A DNA stretch of 64,000 bases, taken from positions 96,001 through 160,000 of the forward strand of contig CAWAQU010000007.1 of the NCBI GenBank assembly GCA_963784355.1, written 5' to 3'. Positions within the stretch are counted from its first letter, which is position 1; each line of letters begins with the position of its first letter. This DNA is from an uncultured bacterium (GTDB lineage Bacteria; Patescibacteriota; JACMRA01). A program made the translations under genes and the position numbers. Positions 15,250 through 41,700 of this stretch are shown one piece after another. The notes under the pieces are model-generated. The model saw only the letters and a list, made by a program, of their open reading frames with translations, was not told the DNA's origin and did not search any database.

Positions 15250-18200
15250 TTAATTGGGTTTTGAGGACTTAATTAAATATTCTTTAAAGTCTTTTGCAGG
15301 AATAGGCTTACTGAAGAGAAAACCTTGTACTTCGTCGCATGATTGCGCTGATAAAATATCAAATTGGTTTTTAGTTTCAACTCCTTCAGCTATAACTTTT
15401 AAATTAAAATTGTGAGCCAGAGAAATAATCGCTTTTGTGACTGCCATATTTTGGCTATGTTTGGTCATGTTGCGAATAAATAGCTGATCTATTTTTAATC
15501 CGTTAATGGGCAATCTTTGTAAATAGGTTAGGGAGGAATACCCTGTACCAAAATCATCAATCAGTAATTTTATGCCCATCTCTTTTAATTTATAAAAAAT
15601 ATCAATAGTACTTTCAGTATTTTCAATAAATACATTCTCAGTTAATTCAAGCTCAAGGTATTTTGGGTCCAAAGATGTGCTCTCAATAACCTGAATAACA
15701 TTTTTAAGGACCTGCTTTTCAGTTAATTGCTTAAAAGATAGGTTTACGGCAACCTGTATTGGGCTGATACCCATTTTTTGCCACTCTATATTTTGTTTAC
15801 ATGCAGTATATAATGCCCATTTATCAATTTCAGTAATTAGTCCTGTTTCTTCGGCAATAGGTAAAAATTCGCCGGGAGAGAGTATTATGCCTTTCTTTGG
15901 ATCGTTCCACCTTGTGAGTGCTTCACAGCCTACCACCTTGCCGGTTTTTATATTGACCACTGGTTGATAATACAATTCAAACTCGTCATTTCTTAGTGCA
16001 CGTCTAATATCAGCCTCAATTTCTAAAAGCTTAACCATTTGGGTGTGCATAGAACTGCTAAATACTTCATAGCAATTTTTGCCTTTGTTTTTTGCCCTGT
16101 ACATCGCTGTATCTGCATCTCTCAACATATCTTCAGGGTTTGTATAGCTTATATTTGCCGGAGTTATACCAATGCTCGAGGTTACAGATACAGAATACTT
16201 CTTAATTTTAAAAGGCTGATTTAATTTTTTCTGGATTTTATTGATTGCTATAATTACTTCCTCTAAATCTTTGACACCTTCAAATAAAATGGTAAATTCA
16301 TCTCCACCCAATCTTGCGATAGTATCATGCTCTCCTAAGCATTTTTGTAGGCGATTTGCTATATCTACAAGTAACTTGTCTCCGGAGGTATGGCCCAAAC
16401 TATCATTGATGATCTTGAATCTATCTATATCTAAAAAAGCAACTATAAAATAATAACTAGGATCCCGTTTTTTTCTATCCATCGCAGTTTTTAGCTTATC
16501 AATAAACAACTTTCCTTTTGCAAGCCCTGTCAGTGAATCATAATATGCTTCCTTTCGAAGTTGCTCTTCCATTAATTTTCTTTTACTTATATCCTCAATA
16601 GTTCCTAAAATTTGATTTGGACTACCATCTTCGTTTCTACTAAAAACAATTTCGCGATTGTATATCCATTTCCAGAGTCCATTTGCATCTTTAATACGGT
16701 ACTCAGTCTCAACTACTTCGTTTTGTTTTGCCGTAGCTAGCAGTTTCTTGCTATTTTCTCGTTTTGAAATATCCTCAGGATGTACAAAATTGTTATAAAA
16801 GGTAATATTGTTATCTATGATATAATCTGCACTATACTCGACAATATTTTTTATTGCCTGATTGACATAAAGGACTTTGTTTTCATTGCTATCATGCAAA
16901 TAAACTATATTCGGTGTAGCATCAACAACCCCTTGAATCAGTCTCTGGGTTTCATATAAATCAGCCTCTGCTTTTTTTCTTGCGCTTACATCTCTAGAGT
17001 TAATAACTATACCTTTGATAATAGGATCATTTAGCAAATTGGACACTACGGATTCTATATAAATCCATTCGCCGTTTGCGTGCTTCACTCTGTATTCTAC
17101 TGATAAATTTTCATCTTCCCTATAAGCTTCAATAAATGCTTTTTCCAAGCTCTTCAAATCTTCAGGGTGAATATAAGCATTTGCATCTTTTCCAATAAAT
17201 ACTTCGGGTTCATAGCCCAATATTCCTTTTATTGAGGGGCTTTCATATATAATTTTACCATTTTGTTCAACAACAGTTATGATATCAGATGAATTTTGCA
17301 CTAAAGATTTAAACCTTTTTTCACTTTCCAGAAGAGCAATAGTAGCTTTTTTTCTATCATTAATATTTAAAATACTTAAGCTTACACCAATTACTCTGTT
17401 TTCCTCAGCGTAAACGGGAGCGTAGTTAAATTCAAACCATAATTCTTGCTCATCTTGACTTTTAACTTTTCTTTCAATTTTTACATTCTTACCATTTAGA
17501 GCGGAAGTATAGTTTTGAATAAAGCTATTTGTATTTTCAGTTGAGATATATTCCCGATAATCTTTACCTTCAACTAGTTTTTTGCCAAGTATCTTGATAT
17601 CTATTTCTTCAGCTAATTTGTTAAAAGCTAAAAGTCTGTAATTGTCATCTAAAAGAACAAATGCCTGGTGGCTACTGTTAAAAATTGCTTTAAGATTAGC
17701 CTCTGATTTTTTTAGAGCAGTTTCGGTTTCTTTCTGTGTACTTAAATCCAAAGCAAATGCCACACAGTTGTTTTGTGTGCCTGGCATTAAGGCAAACCCT
17801 AATAACACAGGAACTAATTTACCATTCTTTTTGATAAAGTGCTTCTCAAATGGTGGGCAAGCTCCTTTTTTCTTGGCTTCTTCTATTTTAATGTAATCCT
17901 GTTGGATCTGGTCTTCAGGTGTCATTTTATCCCATTGTACAATCCCGGCATCAAAATCCTCTCTTGTGTAACCCACTATTTTCAAAAACGCGTCATTGGC
18001 TTCAATGTAATTACCGTCAAAATCACCTATAGTTATACCAATAATATTGGATTCAACCAATCTTTTAAAACTTAACTCACTGAGCCTAAGTTGTTCTAAA
18101 GAATCTGTATGACTAGTCAGAGACTTAATAAGTTGGGTAACGTCCTGTGCTCTAAGTATATAAAAACTTTCACTCTCATCATCTAAATTATCAAAATGAC

Positions 18201-18468
18201 AGTTCCAATTTACCAAGTCACCATTTTTTGATTTTAAAGTGTATACACCATTTTTAAATTTTTCCCCTGATTTAGCTTCAGGATTAGTTTCCTTGATCCA
18301 GCTAGTTAAGTTGGGGAAATCATTCACCTCAAATTTAATTGCTTCAGAAGCAGCCTTATTTACAAAAACTACTTTCCCTTCTTTGTTATATATAATGATG
18401 GCGGAAGGCGCTTCAAAAACTGCCCTTTGGAATATTTTTCTATTGGATTCTATTTCATTTAAACTCAT
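15250..18468 (-). CDS. Multi-PAS diguanylate cyclase/phosphodiesterase (about 5 PAS, GGDEF, EAL)
   Basis: PAS/PAC motifs (IHPED, VHPED), ARLGGDEF, CEAL, DDFGTGYSS, AEGVET. Confidence 0.95.
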   Translation of the reverse strand: MSLNEIESNRKIFQRAVFEAPSAIIIYNKEGKVVFVNKAASEAIKFEVNDFPNLTSWIKETNPEAKSGEKFKNGVYTLKSKNGDLVNWNCHFDNLDDESESFYILRAQDVTQLIKSLTSHTDSLEQLRLSELSFKRLVESNIIGITIGDFDGNYIEANDAFLKIVGYTREDFDAGIVQWDKMTPEDQIQQDYIKIEEAKKKGACPPFEKHFIKKNGKLVPVLLGFALMPGTQNNCVAFALDLSTQKETETALKKSEANLKAIFNSSHQAFVLLDDNYRLLAFNKLAEEIDIKILGKKLVEGKDYREYISTENTNSFIQNYTSALNGKNVKIERKVKSQDEQELWFEFNYAPVYAEENRVIGVSLSILNINDRKKATIALLESEKRFKSLVQNSSDIITVVEQNGKIIYESPSIKGILGYEPEVFIGKDANAYIHPEDLKSLEKAFIEAYREDENLSVEYRVKHANGEWIYIESVVSNLLNDPIIKGIVINSRDVSARKKAEADLYETQRLIQGVVDATPNIVYLHDSNENKVLYVNQAIKNIVEYSADYIIDNNITFYNNFVHPEDISKRENSKKLLATAKQNEVVETEYRIKDANGLWKWIYNREIVFSRNEDGSPNQILGTIEDISKRKLMEEQLRKEAYYDSLTGLAKGKLFIDKLKTAMDRKKRDPSYYFIVAFLDIDRFKIINDSLGHTSGDKLLVDIANRLQKCLGEHDTIARLGGDEFTILFEGVKDLEEVIIAINKIQKKLNQPFKIKKYSVSVTSSIGITPANISYTNPEDMLRDADTAMYRAKNKGKNCYEVFSSSMHTQMVKLLEIEADIRRALRNDEFELYYQPVVNIKTGKVVGCEALTRWNDPKKGIILSPGEFLPIAEETGLITEIDKWALYTACKQNIEWQKMGISPIQVAVNLSFKQLTEKQVLKNVIQVIESTSLDPKYLELELTENVFIENTESTIDIFYKLKEMGIKLLIDDFGTGYSSLTYLQRLPINGLKIDQLFIRNMTKHSQNMAVTKAIISLAHNFNLKVIAEGVETKNQFDILSAQSCDEVQGFLFSKPIPAKDFKEYLIKSSKPN

Positions 18469-20185: not shown

Positions 20186-21844
20186 ATGATTACTGAAAAA
20201 TTAAAGCGATCCAAACAACTAAGTCTAATTTTTAATGAATCTGCAGAAATTTTGGAAATATTTTCTTCCAGCGAAAAATATATTTTTGATATAAATGCAG
20301 TAGAAATACAAGAAATAAATCATTTTTTGGATACCTATTCCGGTCATATATTTGTATATGATTTGAAGGGTGTTTACAAAAAGCTTAAACCATTAAATAT
20401 ATATCTACCTAAAACTACTTTAGATGTAATGTTGGGGAGTTTTGTAGAAAATTCTTCATTTCCAATAGATCTTAATAAGTTGATTGAAAGAAAATTAGGC
20501 CAAGTAGCAATAGAAGATACACAGGCATTGATTAGTGATTCAAGTGAAAATGAAATAAGTGAAGTAGAGCTAATTTATACTTTAGGCAGTAAATTTTTGG
20601 AAGAGCTAGATGGAAAAAGATTGTATTTGTGGCAAAATATCGAGTCGCCGTTAGCAATTATTTTAGCTGAAATGGAGCTGAGAGGTGTTTACATAGATAG
20701 AGAAAAGCTTGTAGAAATAGCTAAAGAGCTGCGCAGGGAATGTAGTAATTTGGAATCAAAAATTTTGGCAGAATTTGCCGAACCGGGGTTAAATATTGGC
20801 TCTACAAAGCAATTATCCGAAGCTCTAATAAAAAAAGGATTTCAATTGGGTAAACCCGGATCTAAGGGCAACGTATCAACAGATAGAAATGTACTTGAAG
20901 AACTTGAAAAAACTGATGAAACAGGGCTAATCAGCATGATTCTGGAGTACAGAACAGTAAGTAAACTGCAGTCCACCTATACACAAACAATATTGGACGC
21001 TTTGGACGAAAATGATCGGTTACATGGGGTATATAATCAAGTTCAAGCTGCAACTGGCAGACTATCTTCAAATAGCCCAAACCTACAAAATATTCCTATA
21101 CGAAATCCAAAGTATGGCCCGCTATTTAGAAGTAGTTTTGCAGCACCTAGCGGTAGATTACTTATTAAAGCAGATTATTCACAAATAGAACTTAGACTCC
21201 TAGCTCATTTTAGCGGTGATGAGACTTTGATTGATGCTTTTAAGGCAAATCAGGATATTCATACCCGTACAGCTTCAGAAATTTTTGAGTTGCCGCTAGA
21301 TCAAGTAACTAAAGCCCAGCGTAGTTTAGGTAAAACTTTGAACTTTGCACTAGTTTATCAGCAAGGTGCTTTTGCTACAGCTCGCCAATTGGGTATTAAT
21401 CAAAAACAGGCTACAGAGTTTATAAATAAGTATTTTGCCAGATTTCCAAGGGTAAAACCGTTTATTGAAGAAAGTTTGGGAAAAGCCAAAGAAGTCGGAT
21501 ATGCCGAGACATTATATGGCCGTAGAAGATATTTTGCAAACCTAAACTCAACTAACGGGTTTGTGAGAAAGATTGATGAAAGGGCTTCTTTTAACGCGAT
21601 ACTTCAAGGTTCAAACGCAGATATTATAAAAATTGCCATGCTGAGTATCACACAAAAATTTAAAGAGCAAAACGTTGATGCTTTTATAATTTTGCAGGTG
21701 CATGATGAGTTAGTACTAGAGGTAGCGGAAAATCAAGCTGAGGAGGCTAGAAAAATCTTGATTACTGAAATGGAGCTAGGTCAACCATTAAAAGTACCTA
21801 TTTTGGTAGAGTCGGGAATTGGCAAAAACTGGGCTGAGTGTTAG
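20186..21844 (+). CDS. polA: Family A DNA polymerase lacking the 5'-3' exonuclease domain
   Basis: TGRLSSNSPNLQNIP, ADYSQIELR, KTLNFALVY, QVHDEL; only 552 aa. Confidence 0.92.
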   Translation: MITEKLKRSKQLSLIFNESAEILEIFSSSEKYIFDINAVEIQEINHFLDTYSGHIFVYDLKGVYKKLKPLNIYLPKTTLDVMLGSFVENSSFPIDLNKLIERKLGQVAIEDTQALISDSSENEISEVELIYTLGSKFLEELDGKRLYLWQNIESPLAIILAEMELRGVYIDREKLVEIAKELRRECSNLESKILAEFAEPGLNIGSTKQLSEALIKKGFQLGKPGSKGNVSTDRNVLEELEKTDETGLISMILEYRTVSKLQSTYTQTILDALDENDRLHGVYNQVQAATGRLSSNSPNLQNIPIRNPKYGPLFRSSFAAPSGRLLIKADYSQIELRLLAHFSGDETLIDAFKANQDIHTRTASEIFELPLDQVTKAQRSLGKTLNFALVYQQGAFATARQLGINQKQATEFINKYFARFPRVKPFIEESLGKAKEVGYAETLYGRRRYFANLNSTNGFVRKIDERASFNAILQGSNADIIKIAMLSITQKFKEQNVDAFIILQVHDELVLEVAENQAEEARKILITEMELGQPLKVPILVESGIGKNWAEC

Positions 21845-25254: not shown

Positions 25255-27612
25255 CTAACTTCCGAATTGACCGAAAAAACCTTTTGAGTTGTTTGAGCTA
25301 CTGTTACCTGTAGTTTTGGCTTTGCTTACAGACTCAATAGCTTTACTCATTTCTTCAGAAAAGTTGTCTATAATGATTGAGCTATTAATTTCTTCTATTG
25401 TAGCCGGTGCATCTTTCAATACTTCCGATAATACCTCCATTAATTCATTAATTGGCATGCTTTCTCCACTCTTAGCTTGAGTTTCAATCTGTTTAGCTAC
25501 ATCTTCTGGTCTCATTTGCTTTTCTAATGTAAAGTTAATCAGATTAAGCATTGTGTTTAATACAGAAGAAAGTTCTGGAGTGATAGTTTCAGTATCCACA
25601 ACCATTAATTTAATACCTTTGCTGTTGTATTGTAATGATGCTCTAATTTTTCCGAAGCCGGATGTTTTCACAACTTGTTCTAGTTTGAGTAGATATTTCG
25701 ACATATTATTTTTTAAATTATAGTTTATTTGATTGTTTATAGCTATTATTGGTTCTGCTTGATCTTTTTCAATATTATCAGATGTTGAATTAAAGTATAG
25801 TTTTTGAGAGTGTAATTTTGATAATAGCACGCTGGAATAATTGCCGGATTTTATCAAGTCATCTTCTTTTACCCAAGAAAGTTCACTCATTTCTTCTACT
25901 TTTGCTTCAACAACATAACCTAAATGTAATAAACTAGGGTCTTCGTCAAAACTGTTAGTTATTGCAGTTCCAATTTCATAGGTAGTTTTACCTGAGACAC
26001 CATATTTCTCGAAAAGTAATTCTTCAATTGCATCTTCGGGTCTAGTATTTTTTGGAAGTAAACCACCAGGTAGGGTGTAGCCTTGCTCTGTTTGCTCAAC
26101 TAATATTTCATTATTTTGGTTAAAAATTACAGAGTGAACGTGTTGTACAACTGTTTCCTTAATTTCAATAATAGGTTCTTGAGTTTGAGGAGTATTAATT
26201 TTGTCTAAAATATCCGTTAATTCCACAGGAGATAAATCCTCTTCTTGCCATACATTTTCATCTACTTCGTAAGCACTGCCTGTTAATTTGTAATGAGTTG
26301 TTTTATCCTGGTCATTAAAAATAATATCTATAACCTGATAAACTTTACTAAATTCTGCTTTGTCTGGATTTTTGACTTGTACTAATTCGCCAATTTGGAA
26401 TAGTGGTTCGGTATTTTGTGATTCTGTCATATTTTTTATTTCTGTTTGGTTTGGTATAAAATTATTTGTTGCATTTTCTTTCTGGTCTGTAGCTAGATTT
26501 GCATCAGTATCAGCTAAATCCATTTCTGTATCATCTCCCTCAGTTTCTTCAACTTCCTCTGTCTCAAAAACACTATTTTGTAAGTTTTCAAATTCATCGT
26601 TGCTTGCTTCGGTTTCAGGTTCATCTTCCAGCTCATCCTCCAATTCATCTAAATCGACTTGAGAATCTAATTGGTCGTCTGCATCCCCGTAAATATTTTC
26701 TGCTTCTTCGGAGTTATTTGTAGATAGTGTAGCAAAAGGATTTTCGTCATCTTTTTCTTCCTTTATTTGCTCAATTTTTGATTCACTTCCAGCAAAGTTT
26801 ACAGAATCAGTAGGCTTAGATTCCATTAATTTTTCATCCAAAACCCCATTAAATATTGATTGTATTTCAGATCCCTGTTTACTTATTTCTGTTTTAGGGG
26901 CTGACTCATCTCTGTCGCTCCATATTTGCCATTCCAAATCAGTTGGGAATAATAAAATATTACTATTTCTTCTAGGTACAATGACAAATCTAGAATTTAC
27001 AACTGTTTCCAAATCATAATCTTCGCTCATCTCTAAACCACTTCTAACCTCACCAGTTTCTACATCATACCAGTACTCAAAAGATTTTGGTCTTAAGTGA
27101 TGCTCGATTTTATTCCAGTTCATGCAGACGCCTTTTTCTTCAGCTAAAGTTTCACTGGCTCTGTAGCTACTACTGCTAATTAAACTACCTATATAATCAA
27201 TTTCATCGAGTTCGGATGTAGTGTTTCTAAGATCAATATATTCTTTAAAATCAGCTAGACCGAGACCAATTTTGCGATATTGAGTTACTATATTTTTAGC
27301 TTCTTCAGTAAAGTTGATTATTTCAAGTAAGCTATCTAATAATCTTACAGAAGTTTCCACAGTAGCTTGCAGGCTTAACTCATCAAGAGAATTATTTTGA
27401 TCTAAGTGTTTTGAGAGTACAATGTCTCCAAAAGGGGTTGCAGGTTTGCCGACAGCAGCCTGATTATTTAAAAGGCTAATTGTTTTTTCGCTAATTTTAA
27501 AAAAACCTTTTTCGACTAAATCTCTAAAGCGCTTTTCCCAATATAATTGTAATTCAGGTGTGTTTTCAGTCTTGGCAGCTGATTGTAGTATCTCATGCAT
27601 AGTTTCGGCCAT
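25255..27612 (-). CDS. Degenerate class II ribonucleotide-reductase-derived protein with acidic linker, Nudix-like domain and TSCPD-like C-terminus
   Basis: WEKRF..L, VRLLD, YRKIGLG, YRASETLAEEKG and RRNS resemble NrdJ; LPGG..PEDA..L.EKYG is Nudix-like; catalytic cysteines are absent. Confidence 0.65.
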   Translation of the reverse strand: MAETMHEILQSAAKTENTPELQLYWEKRFRDLVEKGFFKISEKTISLLNNQAAVGKPATPFGDIVLSKHLDQNNSLDELSLQATVETSVRLLDSLLEIINFTEEAKNIVTQYRKIGLGLADFKEYIDLRNTTSELDEIDYIGSLISSSSYRASETLAEEKGVCMNWNKIEHHLRPKSFEYWYDVETGEVRSGLEMSEDYDLETVVNSRFVIVPRRNSNILLFPTDLEWQIWSDRDESAPKTEISKQGSEIQSIFNGVLDEKLMESKPTDSVNFAGSESKIEQIKEEKDDENPFATLSTNNSEEAENIYGDADDQLDSQVDLDELEDELEDEPETEASNDEFENLQNSVFETEEVEETEGDDTEMDLADTDANLATDQKENATNNFIPNQTEIKNMTESQNTEPLFQIGELVQVKNPDKAEFSKVYQVIDIIFNDQDKTTHYKLTGSAYEVDENVWQEEDLSPVELTDILDKINTPQTQEPIIEIKETVVQHVHSVIFNQNNEILVEQTEQGYTLPGGLLPKNTRPEDAIEELLFEKYGVSGKTTYEIGTAITNSFDEDPSLLHLGYVVEAKVEEMSELSWVKEDDLIKSGNYSSVLLSKLHSQKLYFNSTSDNIEKDQAEPIIAINNQINYNLKNNMSKYLLKLEQVVKTSGFGKIRASLQYNSKGIKLMVVDTETITPELSSVLNTMLNLINFTLEKQMRPEDVAKQIETQAKSGESMPINELMEVLSEVLKDAPATIEEINSSIIIDNFSEEMSKAIESVSKAKTTGNSSSNNSKGFFGQFGS

Positions 27613-27723
27613 AATGTATCTGGGAAATTTTTCTTATTTATACTATAAAGTATAGCATAGAAATTGTTGTTTGGCAAGAATTGACATAACTGGATTTATT
27701 CAATACTAATTACGGATACTAGT

Positions 27724-29127
27724 ATGCTTTCTGTATACCGGAAATACCTTTTTAGCATTTTTGCACTGTTTTTTGTAATTACAACACCTTTTCTGATTAT
27801 TTACTCATTAGGTTATAATTTGGATTTTGAAGATAATGGTTTACAAAACACTTTGAGCATAAATATTGAAACTTATCCTAGAGGGGTCCAGATTGTGAAC
27901 AACAAATTTAATATTGGAGCGTCACCCCTTGAGTTAAAAGCCTCAGATGGAGAAGCAGTTTCTTTAAAACTGGAGAAAAAAGATTATTTAGATGAAAATT
28001 TTACTTTGTGGAGTGAGGCAAACACAAACACAGCTGCTAAAATAACTAACTTGGGCATGTTGCCTATTAAATCAGATACCATTTTTGAACCGACAGATGA
28101 AATCGAAACTTATAATATAATTTCTCCTAATTTGCTATTGTTTAAAGCAAAAGATCAAAAATTTTACATACAGCATTACAATTTGGGTGGTTTGCAAGGT
28201 AAAAGAGATGAAATTAAAACAAATATACAGGCAGAACTGAATTTTGAAAATTTAAAGTGGGAGCAATTAAACGATTCACTATATTGGAATATTCAAGAAA
28301 ATTTACTTGTTTATAAGATAGAAAATGAATGGGCAATGGTTGATTTAAAAAATTATACTTTCAATATTAAATCGCTAGCTCCAACAGTGGATTATCAAAT
28401 TTTCATTTTAACAACCAATGGTGAGTTGTGGTCCCTTAATTTGCGTACTAACCAACTCGATTTCTTAGATAGTGGCTTTAATGGTCTCTACAAGGCTCAA
28501 GATCCGGATAATACATGGCTATGGAGGCAGGACAAAATTTACCGTTTTTCAAAGGACTATGTGGAACCTGAAAGTTTTTCATTCGAAAATGAATTATTTT
28601 CCCAAAATACTCAGCTTGAGGTCAAGGGGCTAGAAATAAATGATCCAAATTACTACACCTTTTCAGTCAGTAATGTTTTTCAAGGTTTGCTATTTAAAGT
28701 TGGCAGCTTTTTATATTATGTACCTGATTTTAATAAAAATGTATGGTATTCAGTTGCAAATGATGCAATTTCGATTGGAGTCAATAGTAATACAGTTTTT
28801 TGGTTTGATCATAACAAAACACTCTTTAGCTACAATTTCTTTTTGAAAGAGCAGGAAAATTTTGGGATTCTTGATGGTGTAGATGGAGATCTGGAGAAAG
28901 CAAAAATCTACTATTTTTATCCCTGGAGAAGAATTTTTATATATTCAGATACAAATGATGTAGTTTCTGTTTGGTTTGATAAAGATAATTTAAATAGAAA
29001 TATAGTTAAATACTCTAGGAACACTTGGGTTGATGATCAAAGATGTTTGCCAAAAGTGGTGGATCGTATACAATACTGTATCTCCGGTAAAAAACTTTTA
29101 GTTTATAAGAATACAAGCTTGTGGTAA
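27724..29127 (+). CDS. Membrane-anchored PEGA-like domain protein with a probable beta-propeller region
   Basis: N-terminal TM helix ending YSLGY, then I.I.TYP.G...LEKKDY; aromatic-rich beta region follows. Confidence 0.7.
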   Translation: MLSVYRKYLFSIFALFFVITTPFLIIYSLGYNLDFEDNGLQNTLSINIETYPRGVQIVNNKFNIGASPLELKASDGEAVSLKLEKKDYLDENFTLWSEANTNTAAKITNLGMLPIKSDTIFEPTDEIETYNIISPNLLLFKAKDQKFYIQHYNLGGLQGKRDEIKTNIQAELNFENLKWEQLNDSLYWNIQENLLVYKIENEWAMVDLKNYTFNIKSLAPTVDYQIFILTTNGELWSLNLRTNQLDFLDSGFNGLYKAQDPDNTWLWRQDKIYRFSKDYVEPESFSFENELFSQNTQLEVKGLEINDPNYYTFSVSNVFQGLLFKVGSFLYYVPDFNKNVWYSVANDAISIGVNSNTVFWFDHNKTLFSYNFFLKEQENFGILDGVDGDLEKAKIYYFYPWRRIFIYSDTNDVVSVWFDKDNLNRNIVKYSRNTWVDDQRCLPKVVDRIQYCISGKKLLVYKNTSLW

Positions 29128-29714: not shown

Positions 29715-32700
29715 TTACCCAATCTCCACCTGCAACCCAGTAGCAGTAACAGTATAGGTGCCTTGAGGTAAATCAGTAAACTGGAACTTACCATCAACTG
29801 CTGTACTTGCTTGTCTATTTATTGTAATACCATTAGGCCCTGTACCGGATAGATTAACTTGTACACCACCTATTGGCTCATCGTTATCTTCTAAAGTATA
29901 TATATCCTCATCAAGTCCTGAAATATCAAAACTACCATTATTTTCCTTATCCCTAAATACTTTTCCTGTTATGGAAGAGTTGGAAGTGAGTACCGGAGTA
30001 AACTGGAAGAAGTTGATTGTTGATTTTTGATATATACTTGTATTTGTGATAGTTAGAGTTACCTCACTAACTGAACCTAAGTTGACAGTGGTTGGATCTT
30101 CTCTTTCTCCAGACCTACTTTTAGTTGTATTTGTGTTTAGTTTGCCGGTTAAGTTGTTGAGCTTTTTAATTATGTAAGTACCAGGTTCTAAATATGGGCC
30201 TGTATCAAAGTTACCAATAGTACTGTAAACTACTTCACCATTTTGTTTCTTAACTTCAAAGTTACAACCAGCTACCGGCCCATCAGCTGGGTTGTTGGGA
30301 TAAGTACTAAGCTGTCCGTCACCATTTTTATCATCAATACACTGCCCCTTTAATTTATTAGTATACACATAAATCAGATTATTTGTGATAACTGTACTAT
30401 TATCTATATTGACACCAGCTTTAACTATATCAGCATCGCTGTAGTCTACACCTCCAATCATAGTTGTACCCCATACCCACTTTTCACTAAGTATTTTCTT
30501 ACATTTAATTGTAGTTAAACACTGATCAACTACACCGGAAGCGTACTGAATTGGTATAATAGCGTTAGGAATAGGATTACTCTCCCCCTCGCCATCACTA
30601 AACTTATGCAATTTGTAATTACCAGTTGGCAGTCCTGTAATTTCGTAGTCTCCGCTTGAGTTTGCTGTAGCTGTGTAGGTACCAAGAGGCCCTACCACAG
30701 AAACTACCGTACCTGCAAGTACCGTTTCCCCAGTATTATATTCATTCTCACCTTGCTCGTCGCGTTGGTTGATAAATACTTTACCCTTAATAATATTGTT
30801 AGTGAAAGGACTAAATGGATAGTTCTTTGCTAAATTTTCACTAGCCAAAATACCTATAGGATCAGGGTTAGATAAACCGCCGCCTAAGGTAATTCCGGAT
30901 GGAATATTGTTAATACTAACTGAGTAATTTCCCGGCATCAAATTTCCAATTCCGGTTTGACCGCAACATGGATTTGGGCCAACGTTTGTAGCTACTACAG
31001 AGTTATCAGCTGTAGTTAAAGGATCACCTGTATAAGTCAGGGTAAATCTTATTGGGCCACCTTTTTCAGTTGCTAATTCAGACTCATCCCAGATACCATT
31101 GGCAATTGTGTCATGAAAGGCTCCTATAGTAAAGACTGCATTGTAGTCATAAGTAAAGTCTTGAGTAGTGTTGGTGTCTTGGTATACATATGTCCCTTCA
31201 GCAATGCACATTAAACAAGTTGTGCCACTTGGCGCCACGTCAGCAACTTGTACTCTGTAATATCCTTCAGCAAGGCCTGGGAAGTTGTACTCACCGTTTT
31301 GATTAGTATTTTGGGTAGCAATAAGTATATTATGCATATACAGCTGAATAATTTTTCCACTATATAGCTGTTCATTATCAAAAACAGTTGCCGGATTATT
31401 ATCTAAACCATTTGCTTCATAATCAGTGCTGCCTCTGTTTAAATATACTTTTCCACTTATGCTACTATTGTTTGTTGGGATAAAGCCGTAAGTAAGACTA
31501 AAGTTTTTAGTGATGTTATCAACTGTGAATTGTTTAGTAAGCTCGCTACCGGATAGTGGTGGATAAGGAGACTGCACTTGGGTAAATTCAACTTTGTAAT
31601 CTTTATTAGGAAGTCTTTTGAATATGAGTGTAGCTGGGTCTGTATAATCTGTTTGTGAGCTTACATTACCCAGAATATTCCCAGTAACTGCATCTTTAAA
31701 GACATAGACTCCTGTAGTGATTATAGTTTGATCTCTTCTACCATTGCTTTCATCTCCGTCTTGTTGATTGTTATGATTTTGGTCGATATACAACTGATTG
31801 CCTACATTACCGGTGTATCCAACAGCAAAGTCTCTATTTCTACTATCTACATTAGTTCCAGGAGTGATAGAACCATAATCTCCTCTATTGCGTAAGTTAT
31901 TAAAGAAATACCAACCTTTGTCTCCAAGGTAACTATTACACACAGTACTAGGTAAGCCCGTTAAACTTCCTTCTTCAGGTAAAGTTGTGATTTTAACTAC
32001 CTGATATGCTCCGGGTACTATACCTGTAAAGCTGTATTTACCATCACTATCTGTTGTAGTAGTTGGTGGGTTTAGATTCCACTGATTGACGTCGGCTTGA
32101 GTTTCTCCATATCCTCCCTCACATTTTATCAATTTAAACTGAACGCCTGAATATCTAAAGTCATCATCAAAACCATAGTCATGTCCGTCTGAAATACCAG
32201 TTTGCCCGTTGTTACCTAGTGGCTCATAGCTACCGTCTCCATCCCTATCATTCCAGATGTAACTTGTGATTGAAGAAGATGACATATTTGGAACGTAAGC
32301 AGCACCAGGATAATATCTAAAGCTAACCTCAGAAGTACTTCCTAGGTATACTGTAGTATTTTGTTCTGTAGCTGATAGTTCTGAGTAGAGCTGCTGATCA
32401 AACGGACTTTGAGAGTCGGGAATTAGAATAACAGTATAGTCTCTAGGTGGTATTTCTCTAATACAAGGATTTGCTGTGTTTAGAGTATAGATTTCCGTAG
32501 TTTGAGTAGATAAATAGCTATTGTATCTTAGCTGTACTTTGACCCCATAATCCAGTAAATTGGTATCTGTTGAGTCCAAATCACCATCGTTATTTTTATC
32601 AACATAGACTAAAGGACAAATCTTGGCGGTGTATTCAAATCCGAAGTTCTTATTTCTTATTTTTTCATTGGTTGTTACAGTACTAGCTAAAATTGAATTA

Positions 32701-35700
32701 GTCGGAAGCACTGCCTCAGTACCAAGTGGGGTAGGGACTCTTGTCTCGTAGTCACCCGGTTCAAGATTGATAAATTCATAATTACCATTAACATCAGTGA
32801 TAGTATAGATAGGAGCATCACTAAAGGCATTTGTGGTAGTATTTTTCTTGTATAACCTGACTTCTTTTTCAGTTAAAACTACATCGTTATCAAACACAGT
32901 GATTTCCAAAGTATCTTGACCGTACTTATCAAAAACTCCATTTCCGTTTCTATCAATATATACATTACCTCGAATAGCACCTTTATTGAAGCTAGAGTTA
33001 TTTGTATAACCAAAGTTCAAGGTAGTGTAGCTAGATGAAGCTATTGTCACTGCAACATTGTTTCCTCCTGTAGTTGATGAATATCCATTTGGAATAGTCT
33101 GCACAACTTTGTAATTATTTGGGAATAAATTATTGAAACAATCATTTCCACCACTGGAAGTACTAAAGCTTTTAATTACAGTATTAGGATCACTGGTTCT
33201 GTAAAGTTTAGTCAAAACACCTGGTATTTGAGCCTCATTTTCATCTTTACTCTCGTTAAAGTTTAAATCGTTGTAAGTATTTACTAAACAGATACTAGAA
33301 TTACCGTTGTAACCAAATTCAATATTTTTAGTTTCATTTGGCTGCAATACGACCAGTTGGTCTCCACCTGTTGTGCTGCTGCTGCCATTAGGAGCATCTT
33401 GGGTAATCAAATATTGCCCTGGAGCTACTCCATTGAAACAAGTGCTATTTGAGTTTGATACAACATCAGTCACTTTAGTTTCTAATATTGTTCCGTCGGT
33501 TGATTTTCTGTAGGTTGTGATGTTATCCAGTAGTATATCCTGGCCACTATTAAATTGACCTGGGGTCACAACATCTTCAAAGGTTTTAGCGGCGCAGATA
33601 TTACCATTACCATTGAAACCGAATTTAGGCCCAGCTTCTACTCCAAAGCTTGTGGTGATTGTTAGGTTTAAAGGTGTGGTATTGCTGTAACCGGTTGGAA
33701 TATTACTTGCACTCAGCTTATATTCACCTATTACTTGCGGATTGAAACATTGTTTAGTACTGCTGGTAGTTAGCTCACCGATTGTAATAGTTTCATTACT
33801 ATTTTTCAGAGTTATTTTTACTCCACCAAGCCTTACTTCACCACTATCAAAATTACCATTACTATTATCATCTCTAAATACTAAAGGACAAATCTTCGGG
33901 TTTCCGTTGTAACCGAATTTAACTGTTTTAGTTTCTCCTGAAGTAAAAGTACCAATGGATTGCTCCAGGCCTGTAGTTGAAATAGTATTTTCCAGTAGCG
34001 AAGCGGTTACTTTGTAGTAATTATTGAAAGCAATTATGTCAGTAAAACAGAGAGTGCCATTTGCTTGGAAAGAATTTACTTGATTACCATACTTATCTTT
34101 TAAGCTAACTGTAACACGCCCGTCGTTTATGAGATTTTCCCCCAAGTCGTAATTTCCGTCGCTGTCATAGTCTTCAAAAATCTGATTAGGACAAATCTGA
34201 CTATTTCCTTTGTAATTAAAGATAACATTTTGATCTTGAGCAAAGTTTACAGTCACATTTACTTTGGCAATGTTGGTAGTTTGAGTAAAGCCTCCTGTAG
34301 CATTTGTAATGGTAGCTCCGGTAGGTACAGTTTGCTCTATCCTATAATTACCCGGAATTACATCAGTAAAACAATTACCACTTCCACTTGGTAAATCAGC
34401 TCCAACTTGTTGGTTGTTAGAAACCTTGATTAATTTGCTAATTACACCATCAATTTCAGGCTCACCGGCATTGTTAGTACCATTTTTATTGTAATCATTT
34501 ATGGCAACAGGGCAGACTTTACTGTTACTGTAATAACCAAATTCAGCATTAGTTCCATCATTATTTACGAAGTTTTTAGTTTCCCCATTAGCTAAACTTA
34601 TATTTCTGGTTTGCTCACCTTGAGTTAAGCTTTTTGTGTTAGTGGTATTACCATCAGGAGACTGTTTAACCGTATAATTCCCCGGCATCAAATCTGCAAA
34701 ACAGTTAGTGTTATTGGTGTTGAACTGCCTGACTACTTTAGCACTGTCAATTAGAGTTGTTGTATAGCCAGCTATTAAAGGCTCACCCACGTCTTGAATC
34801 TTGTTTTTATTATCATCTCTAAAGGTAGGATTTGGACAAATTTGCCCGGTACCTTTGTATCCGAAGTAGACAGATTTATCAGTTTCAGGATCTAAACTTA
34901 CAGTCTGAGTTTGGATATTTCCGGTTGTTGTACCTGTAGTTGAAACTCCACCAGTTGGAATAATCTGCTCAATAGTGTAAGTTTTGTTTGGACTAACGGC
35001 TGCAAAACACTTGGTAGAAGAACCATCAGAAGTAATAGTTTCAATTACTGATCCGTTATCTTTAAGAGTACTTACTACTCCAATCATTAATGGTTCGTTT
35101 TCAAAAGTACCAAAAACGCTACTATTATTAATGTAGTCTCTAAATGGTAGGGGACAGACTTTTGCATTTCCTGTAAATACTTCAAAAGTAGAAGAGGCTT
35201 GTAAATTAGGGTTGGTGTCTCCGGCAGTTTGAGTAACTGCTGTATTTCCTGTACCGGCTTGATTTGGAATTGGGTCAACTGTACATACACCGTTTGCTAC
35301 AACTCCAGTTTCAGTAATTGGAGAGTTAAAGCTGGGCCCTGAAAATGTCATACTACAAGTAGCCCCATCCGTACCTTCCAGAGGCTCGTCGTTACCTGTA
35401 TCTTCCAATCCGCTAGTTCTAGCTGTAAATTTGTATCCGGCGTATACCTTATTAATTATGGTATTGTTTGCTCCATATGTGGTACTTAAGACTGTGCCTG
35501 TATTTTTTAATACTGCAGTACTGTTAGTTGCCAGTTTAGCTTTACCGCTAGCAAGCAGTCTATAGCCAAAAGCTGTGTCTTGATTGACTCCGAAAGCTAA
35601 TGTAATAGATTGTCTGACTTTATTGCCAGCTACAGTTCCACCGGTTGAAGATTGTGAGTTGGTGACTAAGTCTTGCTCTACGGTATAGTTTCCTGGAGCA

Positions 35701-38700
35701 ATAGGGCTGAAACAAATCTGTCCACTTTGATCTGTAGATACTTGTTGTTTCAAAGTATTTAAATCGCTACTTAGATACAGTCTTGTTATTTTGCTGTTTA
35801 TTGGTAAATCACTTCCACCAAAGCTACCATATCCTGGTTGACCGGCTTTATCTTTTTCCAGATAAGTTCTGTTGATACAGATTTGAGCGTTTCCGTTGTA
35901 AGCGAAGTTTTTTGTTTCAGTTGTATTTACTCCTAAAACTATCTGGTATTTTACTTTTCTATTTAGATTATCTACAATTACCCCGTTATTAGTTGCCAGC
36001 GGGAAAGTAAGGGTGCCTCCTACCGGATAACTCTGCTCTACAAAATATGTATCATCAAAGAGACTATTAAAACAATTATCTATACTTGTATTAGTTCCGT
36101 TAGTACCATCTACTGTAGTCAATGTTTTTCCGGAAATCGGATTTTGATTAGCATCCAGTAATCTGGTAGCTACACCTGCCAGTAAAGGCTCAGTACTTTC
36201 TTTAGTACCGTTACTATTATCATCTCTAAAGGTATTATTTACACAAATCTTAGAAGTTGGTGAGTACCTTACTTCAGTAGGAGTAGTAGCTGTTTCATAG
36301 GTATAGCTCGCGTTGAAATCAGTATTAAACACACTTACTACTGTTTTTAAAGTAGCACTTCCCGTAGAGCCTACTTGAGCTGCGGTGAAGTTTGTTGCAC
36401 ATTGTCCTTGGCTATCTAGTGTTGAAGTAACTGCAACTTCAGGATTTGCTCCGATTTTTAGAATATTTTTACAAGTTTGCCCGGTTAAATTACCGTTATT
36501 AGCAAAATTTCTAATATTTGGAGAGTAAATTATGGCAGATTGACCGGCAACAAGTGGGTTAGGGGAGAAGGTAAGAGTACCTGGAATAGTCCCTGTAAGA
36601 CCATTATTACCTGTTAGGTACAAATCAAAGCGTCTACTAAAGTTTGTTGTGTTTGTAGTTAGGGTCGTGTCATCACCATTTGAATTTTTACCGGCAACAG
36701 AGACAGTAAAGCTATAGCTTCCTTTTAAGTAACCTAACTCACTTCCTGTTGGGCTAGAAGTGCAAGTACCATTACTTGCTGCAGCTGAAGTTAAGCTAAA
36801 TTGACTACTGTCAGGTTTAGTGATTTTGAACTCACAAGTAGGCCCGTTTAAAGGTTGATTATTTGCAGAATCTGTAAGGCCTGAAACAGTTAAATTAACA
36901 CTTGTACCAACAAAAGTTGTAGTAACAGTAGTAGATCCGTTTACTGTAGGGGAATTGGAGACCGGAGTAGTACCGGTAGCTACCTTTGCTTTGTTTGAAG
37001 GAAAGCCTGTAGTTGGTATAGTAGTTTGGTTAGTTTCAAAAGGATAGTTTGTACTGCTATAGTTTAAAAGAACTATTGTTTTGACTTTCAAGACACCTGC
37101 AGTAATTACATTATTTGCAATTGTAGTCACACATTTTGAGCTTGCATCAAGAGTTGAAGCGTATTCTATTGGAGTCTGGCTATCAATTTGTACTAGGTTT
37201 TTACAAACTAGGCCTTGAGCTAAGTTAGTCGAGTTATCATATTTTTTGATAGTTGGAGAAGTTAGAGTAGGGTTAGCTCCGCCTGAAACAATCGGGCTAC
37301 TGCTAGATGTAATACTTCCCGGTATCTTACCATTTACATCAAAACTAGTTCCATTTGTTAGGTAAATGTCAAAGTATCTGTTGAAATTAGATGTATCCGT
37401 AGTCAAGCTACTACTTGGCCCCGCTACCGAAATACTAGCTGAGTATGTACCTGCTACATATGGTAAATCAGAAGGGGTAAAAGTTTTTTTACACACACCA
37501 CCAACAATGTTACTATCAGAAGCAAAGGTTTGGCTATAGCTATTTGGCCCCGTTATATTAAAAGTACAAGGTATACCATTTAAAGCTTGGTCGTTACCGG
37601 AGTCTTTTAATCCATCAAAAGTTAGGACTATATTACTACCGATAAAACCAGGATTAGGATTGGAAGTTAAAGAGTTGTAAATTGGTTTAGTTTGATTTGG
37701 TGAAGACTGAGCTTTTGCTTTATTGGAAGCAGAAGGGTAAACTGGAAAACCAACTACTTTTCCTTCCGTACTACCTCCACTAGTTACGCTTAAATTAGCT
37801 GTAAAGCTAGTAGCTTGAGTATCAACTGTATCGGGCGCAGGGAATGAAGCTGTAGTTACGCATGTACCCTGGCTTACAGTACCAGTTTTGGCTACTGGGG
37901 TAGAATAGTTTCCGGGGCCATTAATTGTAATTGTGCAAGTACCTGAATATACATCTCCTCCATATTTATTTTTAATATTACTTATACCACCTAGGAAAGT
38001 AGCTCCGGTTGATACTGGGTTAGGGTTTGGACTAAATAGAGCTGAAGTTAAATTAGTTTCAGGTGTATTAGGATCATAGATAGTACCAGTACAACCTGAA
38101 GTAGTAGCCGGGTAAGCAGCAGTAGCTGCCTCAGCGCAGTCACCGTTACCAGCTCCACCATTTACTGTAATTGAAGCCGTGGATGTGCCTTGTGACATAG
38201 TGCCTGTACGGTTGATGTAGTAAAGAGCAATACGGCCTCCTGCTCCGGCGCCACCATTTCCAGTAGAGTTTCCTCCTCCACTAGCACTAATACTACCACC
38301 ACCTGCTAGAGTATTAGCTGTGAGCCAAATGCTACCTCCTGAGCCTCCTCCACTACCATAAGCACCACCGCTTACATTTCCATTAGCACTAATACTACCA
38401 TTAACTGTAATAGTACCAGTTGCTACAAGTTTAATAGCTCCTCCTCCGTTTCCTCCATCTGCCGCACCTGAACAATATCCTCCACTTCCACTACCTCCTG
38501 AACCAAGATCAAGTGGTTCTGTAAGTGATCCATAACTGTTCCCCCCGATATTACCTGTATCAGAATCTCCTCCTTTTCCTCCATAACCTCCACCTGCTCC
38601 TCTTTGACCAGAACAATTAGCGGTAGCCGCTCCACCACCAGTACCGTTACCAGGTTGACCTGCGTTGGCACCTCCACCCGTATAACCCCTTCCATTCACA

Positions 38701-41700
38701 TCAATCTTAGCACCTGTATCTAACGTAATATTATTTGAGTTAATTATGACACTATTATCATGAGTAGCTACATTAGCTCTATGAGTAATAGTACTACCAC
38801 TATTAACAGTTAAAGTATTAAAGTTATATGTGTTTTTAGTACCTAGAGTAACTAAACTACCTGATTTGACTAAGAAAGTATCTGTTACAGTAGGAGTATT
38901 AGTTGTAGTTAAGTCTAAATTAGCGTTTTCAATAGTTAAATTAATTACTGTAAAAGCTGAACTAATAGGTGTAGTAGCAATATTACTTGAAGCAGTAGTA
39001 TTTCTAATAATCAAATCACCATTAGTTTTATCAGCAGGCTTATCATATATTGTACCTGCTCCTCCAGTTTGAAATCCAGTTCCTCCTGAAGCTGTAACAG
39101 CTCCTGAGAAAGTTTTACTTGCTGCTGTTGGGTAGTAAAGAGCAATACGGCCTCCTGCTCCGGCGCCACCATTTCCAGTAGAGTTTCCTCCTCCACTAGC
39201 ACTAATACTACCACCACCTGCTAGAGTATTAGCTGTGAGCCAAATGCTACCTCCTGAGCCTCCTCCACTACCATAAGCACCACCGCTTACATTTCCATTA
39301 GCACTAATACTACCATTAACTGTAATAGTACCAGTTGCTACAAGTTTAATAGCTCCTCCTCCGTTTCCTCCATCTGCCGCACCTGAACAATATCCTCCAC
39401 TTCCACTACCTCCTGAACCAAGATCAAGTGGTTCTGTAAGTGATCCATAACTGTTCCCCCCGATATTACCTGTATCAGAATCTCCTCCTTTTCCTCCATA
39501 ACCTCCACCTGCTCCTCTTTGACCAGAACAATTAGCGGTAGCCGCTCCACCACCAGTACCGTTACCAGGTTGACCTGCGTTGGCACCTCCACCCGTATAA
39601 CCCCTTCCATTCACATCAATCTTAGCACCTGTATCTAACGTAATATTATTTGAGTTAATTATGACACTATTATCATGAGTAGCTACATTAGCTCTATGAG
39701 TAATAGTACTACCACTATTAACAGTTAAAGTATTAAAGTTATATGTGTTTTTAGTACCTAGAGTAACTAAACTACCTGATTTGACTAAGAAAGTATCTGT
39801 TACAGTAGGAGTATTAGTTGTAGTTAAGTCTAAATTAGCGTTTTCAATAGTTAAATTAATTACTGTAAAAGCTGAACTAATAGGTGTAGTAGCAATATTA
39901 CTTGAAGCAGTAGTATTTCTAATAATCAAATCACCATTAGTTTTATCAGCAGGCTTATCATATATTGTACCTGCTCCTCCAGTTTGAAATCCAGTTCCTC
40001 CTGAAGCTGTAACAGCTCCTGAGAAAGTTTTACTTGCTGCTGTTGGGTAGTAAAGAGCAATACGGCCACCTGCTCCGGCGCCTGGAGTACCACCAGTACC
40101 AGCGTTACCACCATTAGCAGTAATACTACCACTACCTGCTAGAGTATTAGCTGTAAGCCAAATGCTACCTCCACTTCCACCTGCTCCTCCATAGCTGCTA
40201 CTTCCACCATCATTTCCATCAGCACTAATACTTCCATTTACTGTAATAGTACCTGTCACTTGTAATTTAATAGCTCCTCCTCCGTTTCCTCCATCTGCCG
40301 CACCTGAACAATATCCTCCACTTCCACTACCTCCTGAACCAAGATCAAGTGGTTCTGTAAGTGATCCATAACTGTTCCCCCCGATATTACCTGTATCAGA
40401 ATCTCCTCCTTTTCCTCCATAACCTCCACCTGCTCCTCTTTGACCAGAACAATTAGCGGTAGCCGCTCCACCACCAGTACCGTTACCAGGTTGACCTGCG
40501 TTGGCACCTCCACCAGTATAACCTCTCCCAACCCCATTAAGCGTACTACCCACACCTATATTCACACTACTTGCATACACTTTAAGTCCAACTCCCTGAG
40601 CTACATTTACAGTAGTTCCTGCTGCTACAGTAAACACTCCTACGTTACAATATCTTCCTGTTAGAGTATCTCCATTAGCTGGAGTAAGATTTGCTCCTTG
40701 AAGATCATTATCACAGTCTAGTTTATTTATACTTACTGTATTTGAGTCTACACTATTACCTGCTCCATTTGCAGCTATTATTTTAAATTGATAATCTTGA
40801 CCTGGAGTAAGACCTGTTACTGTACTATTTGGATTTGTATTAACTCCATCATTATATATTGTTTCAGTAGTAAAATTATTTTGACTATATTTAATTATAT
40901 AATCAGTAATACCACTTCCATTATCAAAAGGAGTTGTCCATTTTAAAAATACTTTATCTCCTTCTGTTTTATCTACAACTAAATCAGTAATAGGGTTAGC
41001 TTTACTAATACCTCCATAAGTAAAACTATTAAATACAACTGAACTAGTCCCATCAGAGTTGGTAATCTTTACAGTTTGAGTACCTGTACCACTTGGAGTG
41101 TAAATTGTAGCTGTAGTAGAGTTGACAAGGTCAGCATATACCTCATTAGCTCCTATTTTAACTATGATACCTCTATTTTCAGAAGATAAGCTTGTAGTTG
41201 GCATGGAGCTGGTATTGTATAATCTATACTTGGTGTTTAGGTAGGATTCGATTGTTTGGCGGTCGGGGTTTGAGAGAGAAGAATTAAAAATTAAAGTTTC
41301 AGCTATATCTCCACTATGATTACCATATGTATCACTACCCAACTGTTTTGGAGCGTACACTGTAGTTTTAGGTGAAGTTAGTCCAGTTCTTACACTTGAA
41401 CCGTTAAGGTATATGGTTGGCTGTTTTGCAGTGTACTGTAATCCTATTAAATTGTTTACTGTTCCTACATTTCCATTATATACTGCCAAAGGCGGCATAT
41501 AGCTGGCCCCATGCTCATATATAGAAATACCGTTTGTACCAAGAGAAATACCAGCCCCCGCATCCATATTTGAAGGCCATAGTAAGTATCTTTGCCCACC
41601 TGTACCAGTGGCTGTACCATTGCTTTCTGCATCAATCTCATGAGTGACATCAGTTTTTGCTACGGAAAAAACAGTAAAATCATTGGTTGCCGGATGATTA

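Follow-up and report, generated by a model that had tools for sequence, protein, structure and literature searches.

What remains of a ribonucleotide reductase (RNR) once the parts that carry its chemistry are gone, and what would a cell keep it for? The question is raised by an intact open reading frame (ORF), P0001, in a 64,000-nucleotide stretch of DNA (the window; assembly GCA_963784355.1, contig CAWAQU010000007.1, positions 96,001 to 160,000) from an uncultured bacterium of the phylum Patescibacteriota. P0001 occupies window positions 25255-27612 and comprises 785 codons plus a stop. A sequence-only reading, which gave no strand, had described an intact frame of 785 codons with a single cysteine; both hold, the frame lying on the minus strand and the cysteine being C163. 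It had also taken the protein for a dead NrdJ remnant carrying an acidic linker, a dead Nudix domain and a TSCPD-like domain. We find that P0001 descends from a class II (B12-dependent) NrdJ with a TSCPD domain and has lost catalysis. A dead NrdJ derivative it is, then, but "remnant" is the wrong word, since the RNR piece is the best conserved part of the protein and universal in its family (82/82). We refer to this RNR-derived piece, residues 1-240, as the head, and to the TSCPD-type residues 636-747 as the C-domain.

The Pfam model Ribonuc_red_lgC (PF02867) covers P0001 residues 62-185 alone, that is positions 230-355 of a profile of 523 (E 1.1e-8), with a score above the curated cut-off, and matches 53 of 60 family members; the NCBIfam NrdA and NrdJ models match the same stretch at scores far under their cut-offs. 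This restricted span bears out the earlier statement that the central barrel and the NPCxE loop are missing. Residues 58-224 run from the strand after the finger loop through the PRRNS motif, and the family profile matches the NrdJ structure 1xje in the Protein Data Bank (PDB) with E 8.8e-14, profile positions 55-198 lying on chain residues 333-482. An AlphaFold2 (AF2) model of residues 1-245, built with 20 relatives from genome loci (alignment A2, mean column identity 52%), has a predicted local distance difference test (pLDDT) of 94.1 and a predicted template modelling score (pTM) of 0.92. In a Foldseek search of the PDB its top listing consists exclusively of RNR large subunits (E 5.8e-7, query TM-score (TMq) ~0.5), and 206 residues superpose on the Thermotoga maritima NrdJ chain 3o0n_B with Z 19.7 and a root-mean-square deviation (rmsd) of 2.8 Å, model residues 1-235 of 245 corresponding to chain residues 37-594. 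An Atlas search with the head returned unnamed clusters and one named "RNR fragment" (0.92-0.93), which are leads only. Together, the span on the T. maritima enzyme and the profile match to 1xje indicate that the head, as modelled, is an NrdJ with its middle removed. Structure comparison thus recovers both the RNR fold and the Nudix fold (Z 19.7 and 14.7) that had been read from the sequence.

The missing parts are those on which catalysis depends. The first half-barrel and the NPCGE thiyl-radical finger loop are absent, about 240 residues having gone between the N-terminal helix and strand beta-F together with the dimer and specificity helices; in RNRs these helices precede the finger loop, which we take to place them within the deleted region. 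Also gone are ~95 residues after PRRNS and ~100 residues of the late barrel, leaving the ten-stranded barrel incomplete (245 residues map to chain 37-594 with 206 matched positions). The beta-F cysteine itself, in "ACNLGS" of the NrdJ protein P0135, is occupied in P0001 by T59, and threonine is invariant at this position in 82/82 family proteins. In the genome of the window (G000), PF02867 matches the class I enzyme and P0001 and nothing else. We infer that P0001 no longer makes deoxyribonucleotides.

As the phylum's class I and class II barrels both score 54-60 bits, hidden Markov model (HMM) scores alone do not separate the class of origin, which we therefore rested on the N-terminal helix, the TSCPD domain, an exhaustive profile search and a tree. 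The exhaustive search gave the NrdJ proteins P0133, P0135, P0137 and P0138 as the nearest true enzymes (91-118 bits). P0001 is collinear with P0135: residues 12-34 align with 39-61, residues 58-224 with 321-490 (BLASTP, 33% identity, E 8e-24) and residues 227-233 with 586-592, the last being weak alone (E 2.5); W228, D233 and R234 are invariant in the family, and the structure alignment extends to chain residue 594. Further on, the C-domain is matched to P0135 693-790 by the family HMM (independent E-value (iE) 1.1e-8), and P0135 699-787 is a Pfam TSCPD domain (E 2.3e-14). The NrdJ-like N-terminus of the sequence-only reading was likewise recovered: family HMM positions 3-29 match P0133 36-62 (iE 2.5e-5), the N-helix matches the N-termini of the NrdJs P0143 and P0185 (iE ~5e-6), and positions 2-31 match residues 108-137 of L081 (iE 9e-4); in P0135 the region matching this helix, 17-75, is Pfam Ribonuc_red_lgN. 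NPCGE is present in P0135 and P0137, where the site is not broken by a long insert, and in L077-L081. In a quick-search tree of the barrel (80 rows, 190 columns) the family is monophyletic (SH-aLRT, the Shimodaira-Hasegawa-like approximate likelihood ratio test, 99) and adjoins the P0133-P0138 clade, with class I nested far off; since its rows were picked by similarity to the family, this sequence tree is consistent with an NrdJ origin and is not proof of the donor. As to the NrdJs themselves, P0133, P0138 and P0139 carry inserts of ~400 amino acids at or beside the finger-loop motif that look intein-like, and L026, a locus of the P0133-P0138 type, was deposited as a cyanobacterial metagenome-assembled genome (MAG).

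A word-indexed search yielded 82 proteins including the query, which share their first ~240 residues at 50-69% identity and are variable in the remainder; all 22 invariant columns of their alignment lie within residues 16-234. Searched exhaustively by HMM, a set of 1.84 billion representatives yields 96 for the family at 50% identity (E<=1e-30), which match nearly the full profile from their own N-terminus save for four short entries of 111-200 residues that match its front only; below them follow true RNRs, matching profile positions ~54-221 alone. In a domain census made with HMMs from close relatives, which may miss divergent copies of the domains outside the head, the head was detected in 82/82 proteins as the sole universal part, the small barrel in 58/82, and the Nudix-like and TSCPD-like parts in 34/82 each. 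The order head, barrel, Nudix, C-domain was found in 29/82 members, head and barrel in 23/82, the head only in 20/82 and other combinations in 10/82, so that the Nudix/TSCPD architecture claimed for P0001 is real in this protein but was detected in a minority of the family. In three informative close pairs the ratio of nonsynonymous to synonymous substitution rates (dN/dS) comes to 0.048, 0.056 and 0.056 in the head, compared with 0.117, 0.112 and 0.121 over the remainder of the protein; between the window gene and its nearest relatives dS is saturated. The family is under strong purifying selection, and the selection that had been suspected from the intact frame is now seen in dN/dS of 0.048-0.056 on the head and in the 22 invariant columns.

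The head is present in 27/27 species genomes of the class (GTDB) to which the window's genome belongs. Among 301 sampled genomes of the phylum it is full-length in 17, of which 16 belong to family f1, including the window's genome, and one to f2; the other 284 sampled genomes gave no full-length match, and in the 94 of them with a match at E<=1e-10 the hits are partial, in frames of ~400-1500 residues that are real RNRs. A real RNR, full or split between contigs, is found in 25/27 genomes of the class, the two without one being 85% and 79% complete. The five real RNRs that were read (L001, L082-L085) have an NxC(T/C)E loop and a C-terminal CxxC tail as in class I, and in the window's genome NrdB adjoins NrdA on contig C9, the resident RNR thus being class I NrdAB. 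Pfam TSCPD occurs in 68/151 genomes of the phylum, terminal to NrdJs of ~800 residues, and in 0/8 genomes of the window's class. The pattern fits a lineage reliant on class I that has kept a trimmed NrdJ, the order of events being presumed. As the protein is present in every genome examined of this class of ultra-small bacteria and has lost its catalytic parts, it must now have another job.

Two observations concern these genomes as deposited. In G302 the head is split over C9:52503-52940 and C39:6311-6703, one piece holding one TGA and three TAA codons, which may reflect a broken copy or an assembly problem. The NCBI records of MAGs of the class disagree with one another (Saccharibacteria, Peregrinibacteria, Paceibacterota, SR1, Gracilibacteria, Bdellovibrionales, Limisphaerales); the L004, L010 and L020 contigs, labelled Bdellovibrionales or Limisphaerales, are probably mislabelled, as the full-length matches in the GTDB genomes searched all fall in one class. 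The habitats given in titles of related MAG records include freshwater and glacier streams.

What that job might be is suggested by the other end of the protein. The C-domain, aligned by hhalign with TSCPD (PF12637) from 21 NrdJs of the phylum, gives a probability of 85.2%, E 6e-6 and a score of 37.5; by comparison, none of 30 column shuffles exceeded 18.4, reversing the alignment gave 12.5, and a control with an unrelated alignment gave 13.5. It contains zero cysteines, in agreement with the TSCPD-like C-terminus without cysteines that had been read from the letters. Pfam TSCPD has no match in P0001 and matches 1/60 members (E 0.0029). Judged by its sequence, the C-domain is what is left of the C-terminal domain of NrdJ. 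When residues 396-785 were modelled (14-row alignment, mean pLDDT 64.8), it took the form of three strands plus helices at pLDDT 58-74; because Nudix chains filled the fold searches with this model, structure comparison has little to say on the small barrel and the TSCPD-like domain.

A C-domain copy was detected by profile in 22/27 genomes of the class, fused in 15 and standalone only in 7, where its frames measure 131-220 residues. In G305 and G306 this standalone copy is next to the head gene, and in G035, G060, G304 and G308 it lies on another contig; in G307 it accompanies a head on a short contig fragment. A second, standalone C-domain lies directly 3' of the fused gene at L012, L037-L039, L041, L043 and L044, and at L016 and L018 the downstream ORF holds the sole copy. 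These small proteins consist of a TSCPD-like domain and a long low-complexity tail, several ending in FFNPF(R). According to PMC5704485, the C-terminal cysteine-rich domain of active NrdJ is required for higher oligomers and for electron transfer, and in NrdJa+b it is encoded by a separate gene.

We propose that P0001 is a non-catalytic head-plus-tail assembly module, a proposal from comparative analysis that we credit about as readily as we doubt. An assembly role could remain because the C-domain lacks cysteines and its NrdJ counterpart is needed for oligomers too. Trimming left a compact half-barrel head, as in the model, and the acidic linker, small barrel and dead Nudix fold were inserted ahead of the old, cysteine-free TSCPD-type domain. 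Head and TSCPD-like module may retain the ancestral contact between head and C-terminal domain, P0001 would then work as a non-enzymatic assembly or adaptor protein, and the disordered linker together with the short aromatic/basic C-terminal motif could tether the assembly to a partner. Ends of the FFGxF or FNPF type turn up repeatedly, both among relatives (16/82 by regular expression) and among the standalone C-domain proteins; members with a C-domain often end in FFGxFG or FNPF, and those without mostly end basic, in STLKMMxKY or LLKLKRL types. The net charge of the last 20 residues is +2.1, compared with +0.3 in neighbouring ORFs.

Several points weigh against this proposal. The structures of the head and of the other domains are predictions, and so are the binding and function of P0001; a half-barrel left exposed presumably requires a partner, and no such partner is known. 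The C-domain went undetected by HMM in 48/82 members, and 5/27 genomes, 68-84% complete, lack a detectable one. Gene neighbourhood is not conserved across 40 loci. Finally, the tail motifs are weakly distinctive, the median hydrophobic moment of the last 20 residues being 0.47 compared with 0.42 in neighbouring ORFs (p 0.026, from sequences that are not independent). A membrane-targeting or amphipathic tail was considered and is not claimed, the moment being barely above that of the neighbours.

The alternative that survives best is that P0001 regulates or titrates the resident class I RNR, for example by binding NrdA or the NrdB tail or by acting as a decoy. In favour are the descent of the protein from an RNR, the presence of a real RNR beside it in 25/27 genomes, and G035, where a single contig carries both genes ~10 kb from each other. 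In general, however, head and RNR genes are unlinked, being on contigs C7 and C9 in the window's genome and, in G167, whose genome is closed, at 605 kb and 335 kb. The deleted part of the barrel includes the region of the dimer and specificity-site helices, and the ancestor is class II, whereas the resident enzyme is class I. We consider such regulation unlikely; the decoy role floated in the sequence-only reading is inapplicable as far as NrdJ is concerned, since the real RNR of this genome is class I NrdAB.

Less probable still is a nucleotide or nucleotide-sugar sensor, in which the dead Nudix fold would bind a ligand and signal through the other domains. The fold itself is clear in the model (pLDDT 80-90): residues 484-606 align with 3grn_B over 121 residues at Z 14.7 and rmsd 1.9 Å (Foldseek E 3.9e-7), and the non-catalytic Nudix domains of NrtR and the MutY C-terminus are among the structural matches. 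The broken box noted from the sequence is equally clear. Against the Nudix box consensus GX5EX7REUXEEXGU, the E, R, E, E, E positions are T523, E531, L532, E535 and K536 in the 2pqv alignment, so that 1/5 is kept, and the box columns vary among relatives (alignment A4). Pfam NUDIX gives no match in P0001 at E<=1 and 0/60 members at E<=0.01. As the Nudix-like domain is detected in just 34/82 members, without conservation of its box positions, and is less constrained than the head, we regard the sensor as a doubtful candidate. The parts that precede it are as had been described: a linker rich in aspartate and glutamate (D+E), residues 241-400 with 31% D+E, whose length varies among relatives (alignment A1 takes 2258 columns for proteins of ~750 residues), and the small FQIGELVQV beta-barrel-like domain, residues 402-475, with five predicted strands. 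For this barrel a profile search gave no PDB sequence match at E<=10, the Pfam hits (HAS-barrel, Plus-3, DUF6960) were at chance level and Atlas scores reached <=0.85; direct sequence searches hinted, at chance level, at Nudix (2pqv, E 0.6) and at a chromo-like barrel.

Could the head have acquired a new catalytic role or the ability to bind a cofactor, through a cobalamin site that was retained, say, or a new active site near C163? Many of its polar residues are invariant, and its cysteine is nearly so, but most of these, within the motifs EKGxCxxW, FExW and PRRNS that the family shares with its NrdJ relatives, are already present in P0133 and P0137; they are thus inherited rather than new, and we think this reading very improbable. 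The loss of all catalytic parts might suggest a pseudogene in decay, or a frame open by chance, but this is hardly credible given the intact frame, its presence in 27/27 genomes, dN/dS of ~0.05 and a pLDDT of 94. We give just as little credence to P0001 being part of an active NrdJ whose other part is supplied in trans; split enzymes do exist as NrdJa+b (PMC5704485), but here the case fails, since no separate gene for the first half-barrel was found in the 27 genomes of the class and the beta-F cysteine has become an invariant threonine.

Returning to the assembly module, we also entertain a bolder form, namely that the head is an autonomously folding natural half of the ten-stranded RNR barrel, indispensable for a function unrelated to nucleotide reduction, lineage-defining, and kept with its oligomerisation domain after NrdAB took over dNTP synthesis. 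We think this rather unlikely, somewhat less so than regulation of the resident enzyme. If true, with a second, non-catalytic activity retained, moonlighting would so far have gone unnoticed in NrdJ-type reductases, and a natural protein would allow a direct test of how stable a half-barrel is, a matter of long discussion. RNRs are among the best-studied enzymes, and here a cellular lineage retains a radically trimmed NrdJ, a clear conversion of enzyme to pseudoenzyme, coincident with class I use in that lineage. The head can serve as a sequence marker for a class-level lineage of the candidate phyla radiation and offers a natural half-barrel for studies of fold evolution, and the protein provides a handle on the role of the NrdJ C-terminal domain besides electron transfer.

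Table. Coordinates of P0001, its parts and related features. Positions are those of the window unless a locus is given.
Feature	Residues	Position	Strand	Basis or remark
Whole ORF P0001		25255..27612	-	785 codons plus stop
N-terminal RNR-derived domain (head)	1-240	26893..27612	-	AF2, structure alignment, family census, dN/dS
Helix, ENTPEL..YW.KR(Y/F)	12-34	27511..27579	-	homologous to NrdJ N-terminal all-alpha region
Second half of RNR barrel	58-224	26941..27441	-	BLASTP to P0135, PF02867, profile against 1xje
EWQIWSDRD, family-invariant	227-235	26908..26934	-	collinear with QWQLWVD (586-592) of P0135
Acidic linker, low complexity	241-400	26413..26892	-	31% D+E, 5% lysine plus arginine
Small five-stranded beta-barrel, FQIGELV motif	402-475	26188..26409	-	AF2, pLDDT ~80; no family assigned
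Nudix fold, degenerate box	484-606	25795..26163	-	structure alignment, Foldseek
Cysteine-free TSCPD-type domain	636-747	25372..25707	-	hhalign, family HMM on P0135
Low-confidence tail, ends KGFFGQFGS	748-785	25258..25371	-	pLDDT <50
Promoter-like site, TTGCCA, 17 nucleotides, TATACT with TG		27649..27677	-	37 nucleotides 5' of P0001 ATG
Standalone C-domain protein		L012:7965-8510
Standalone C-domain protein		L041:6941-7570
Standalone C-domain protein		L043:2314-2925
Standalone C-domain protein		L016:6008-6463
Standalone C-domain protein		L018:8981-9403

The gene of P0001 stands alone between a divergent ORF upstream and a convergent SufE gene downstream. The promoter-like site falls in the divergent intergenic region; such sites near P0001 are not above chance (7 observed, 10.5 expected). 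A conserved operon was sought by clustering the ORFs of the 40 loci and was rejected, shared neighbours being limited to close kin; the genes found beside it at one locus or another encode a YibE/F protein, trigger factor, TPR, formyltransferase, RDD, glycosyltransferase, DnaX, PEGA, class A penicillin-binding and RluA-like proteins. The divergent neighbour (27724-29127, plus strand, 467 residues) has no Pfam match; a weak PEGA domain (E 3.5e-6) is present in its homologue at L005, and the neighbour is syntenic solely among the closest relatives (the window, L005 and L032). Elsewhere in the window, a single ORF of 5946 codons (29715-47555, minus strand) lies 2 kb from the P0001 gene. A protein of 552 residues (20186-21844, plus strand) has a family A DNA polymerase domain (173-551) as its only Pfam match, Pfam finding no exonuclease domain in it. 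A protein of 1072 residues (15250-18468, minus strand) in which several PAS domains precede GGDEF and EAL, pointing to cyclic di-GMP turnover, is conspicuous for a genome of ~1.1 Mb.

Full-text searches, in the text that they returned, gave inactive RNR homologues in betaherpesviruses only; they brought up neither a bacterial example nor any account of the P0001 family, and the part of PMC9669993 that was available does not mention such a protein. In the split NrdJa and NrdJb the C-terminal domain is separable (PMC5704485), as it is here in the 7/27 genomes with standalone copies only; unlike P0001, those enzymes are active, with a complete barrel and conserved cysteines. Compared with class II NrdJ with TSCPD (1xje, 3o0n), P0001 has a homologous and collinear N-helix, second half-barrel, QWQxWxD motif and TSCPD-type domain; it lacks the first half-barrel, NPCGE, the redox cysteines, ~95 residues after PRRNS and the terminal cysteine-rich end of the phylum's NrdJs, and has gained the acidic linker, the small barrel and the Nudix fold. 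With the non-catalytic Nudix domains of NrtR and the MutY C-terminus it shares a fold without a working box; those domains bind ADP-ribose or 8-oxoG DNA as parts of known regulators or glycosylases, whereas in the P0001 family the domain is optional. The inactive R1 proteins of betaherpesviruses derive from class I, keep the whole R1 body and act in host cell-death and immune pathways; they are viral and are not related to the P0001 family by descent. The likeness lies in their history, as UL45, M45/vIRA and U28 are RNR R1 homologues that lost catalysis and were kept for another role.

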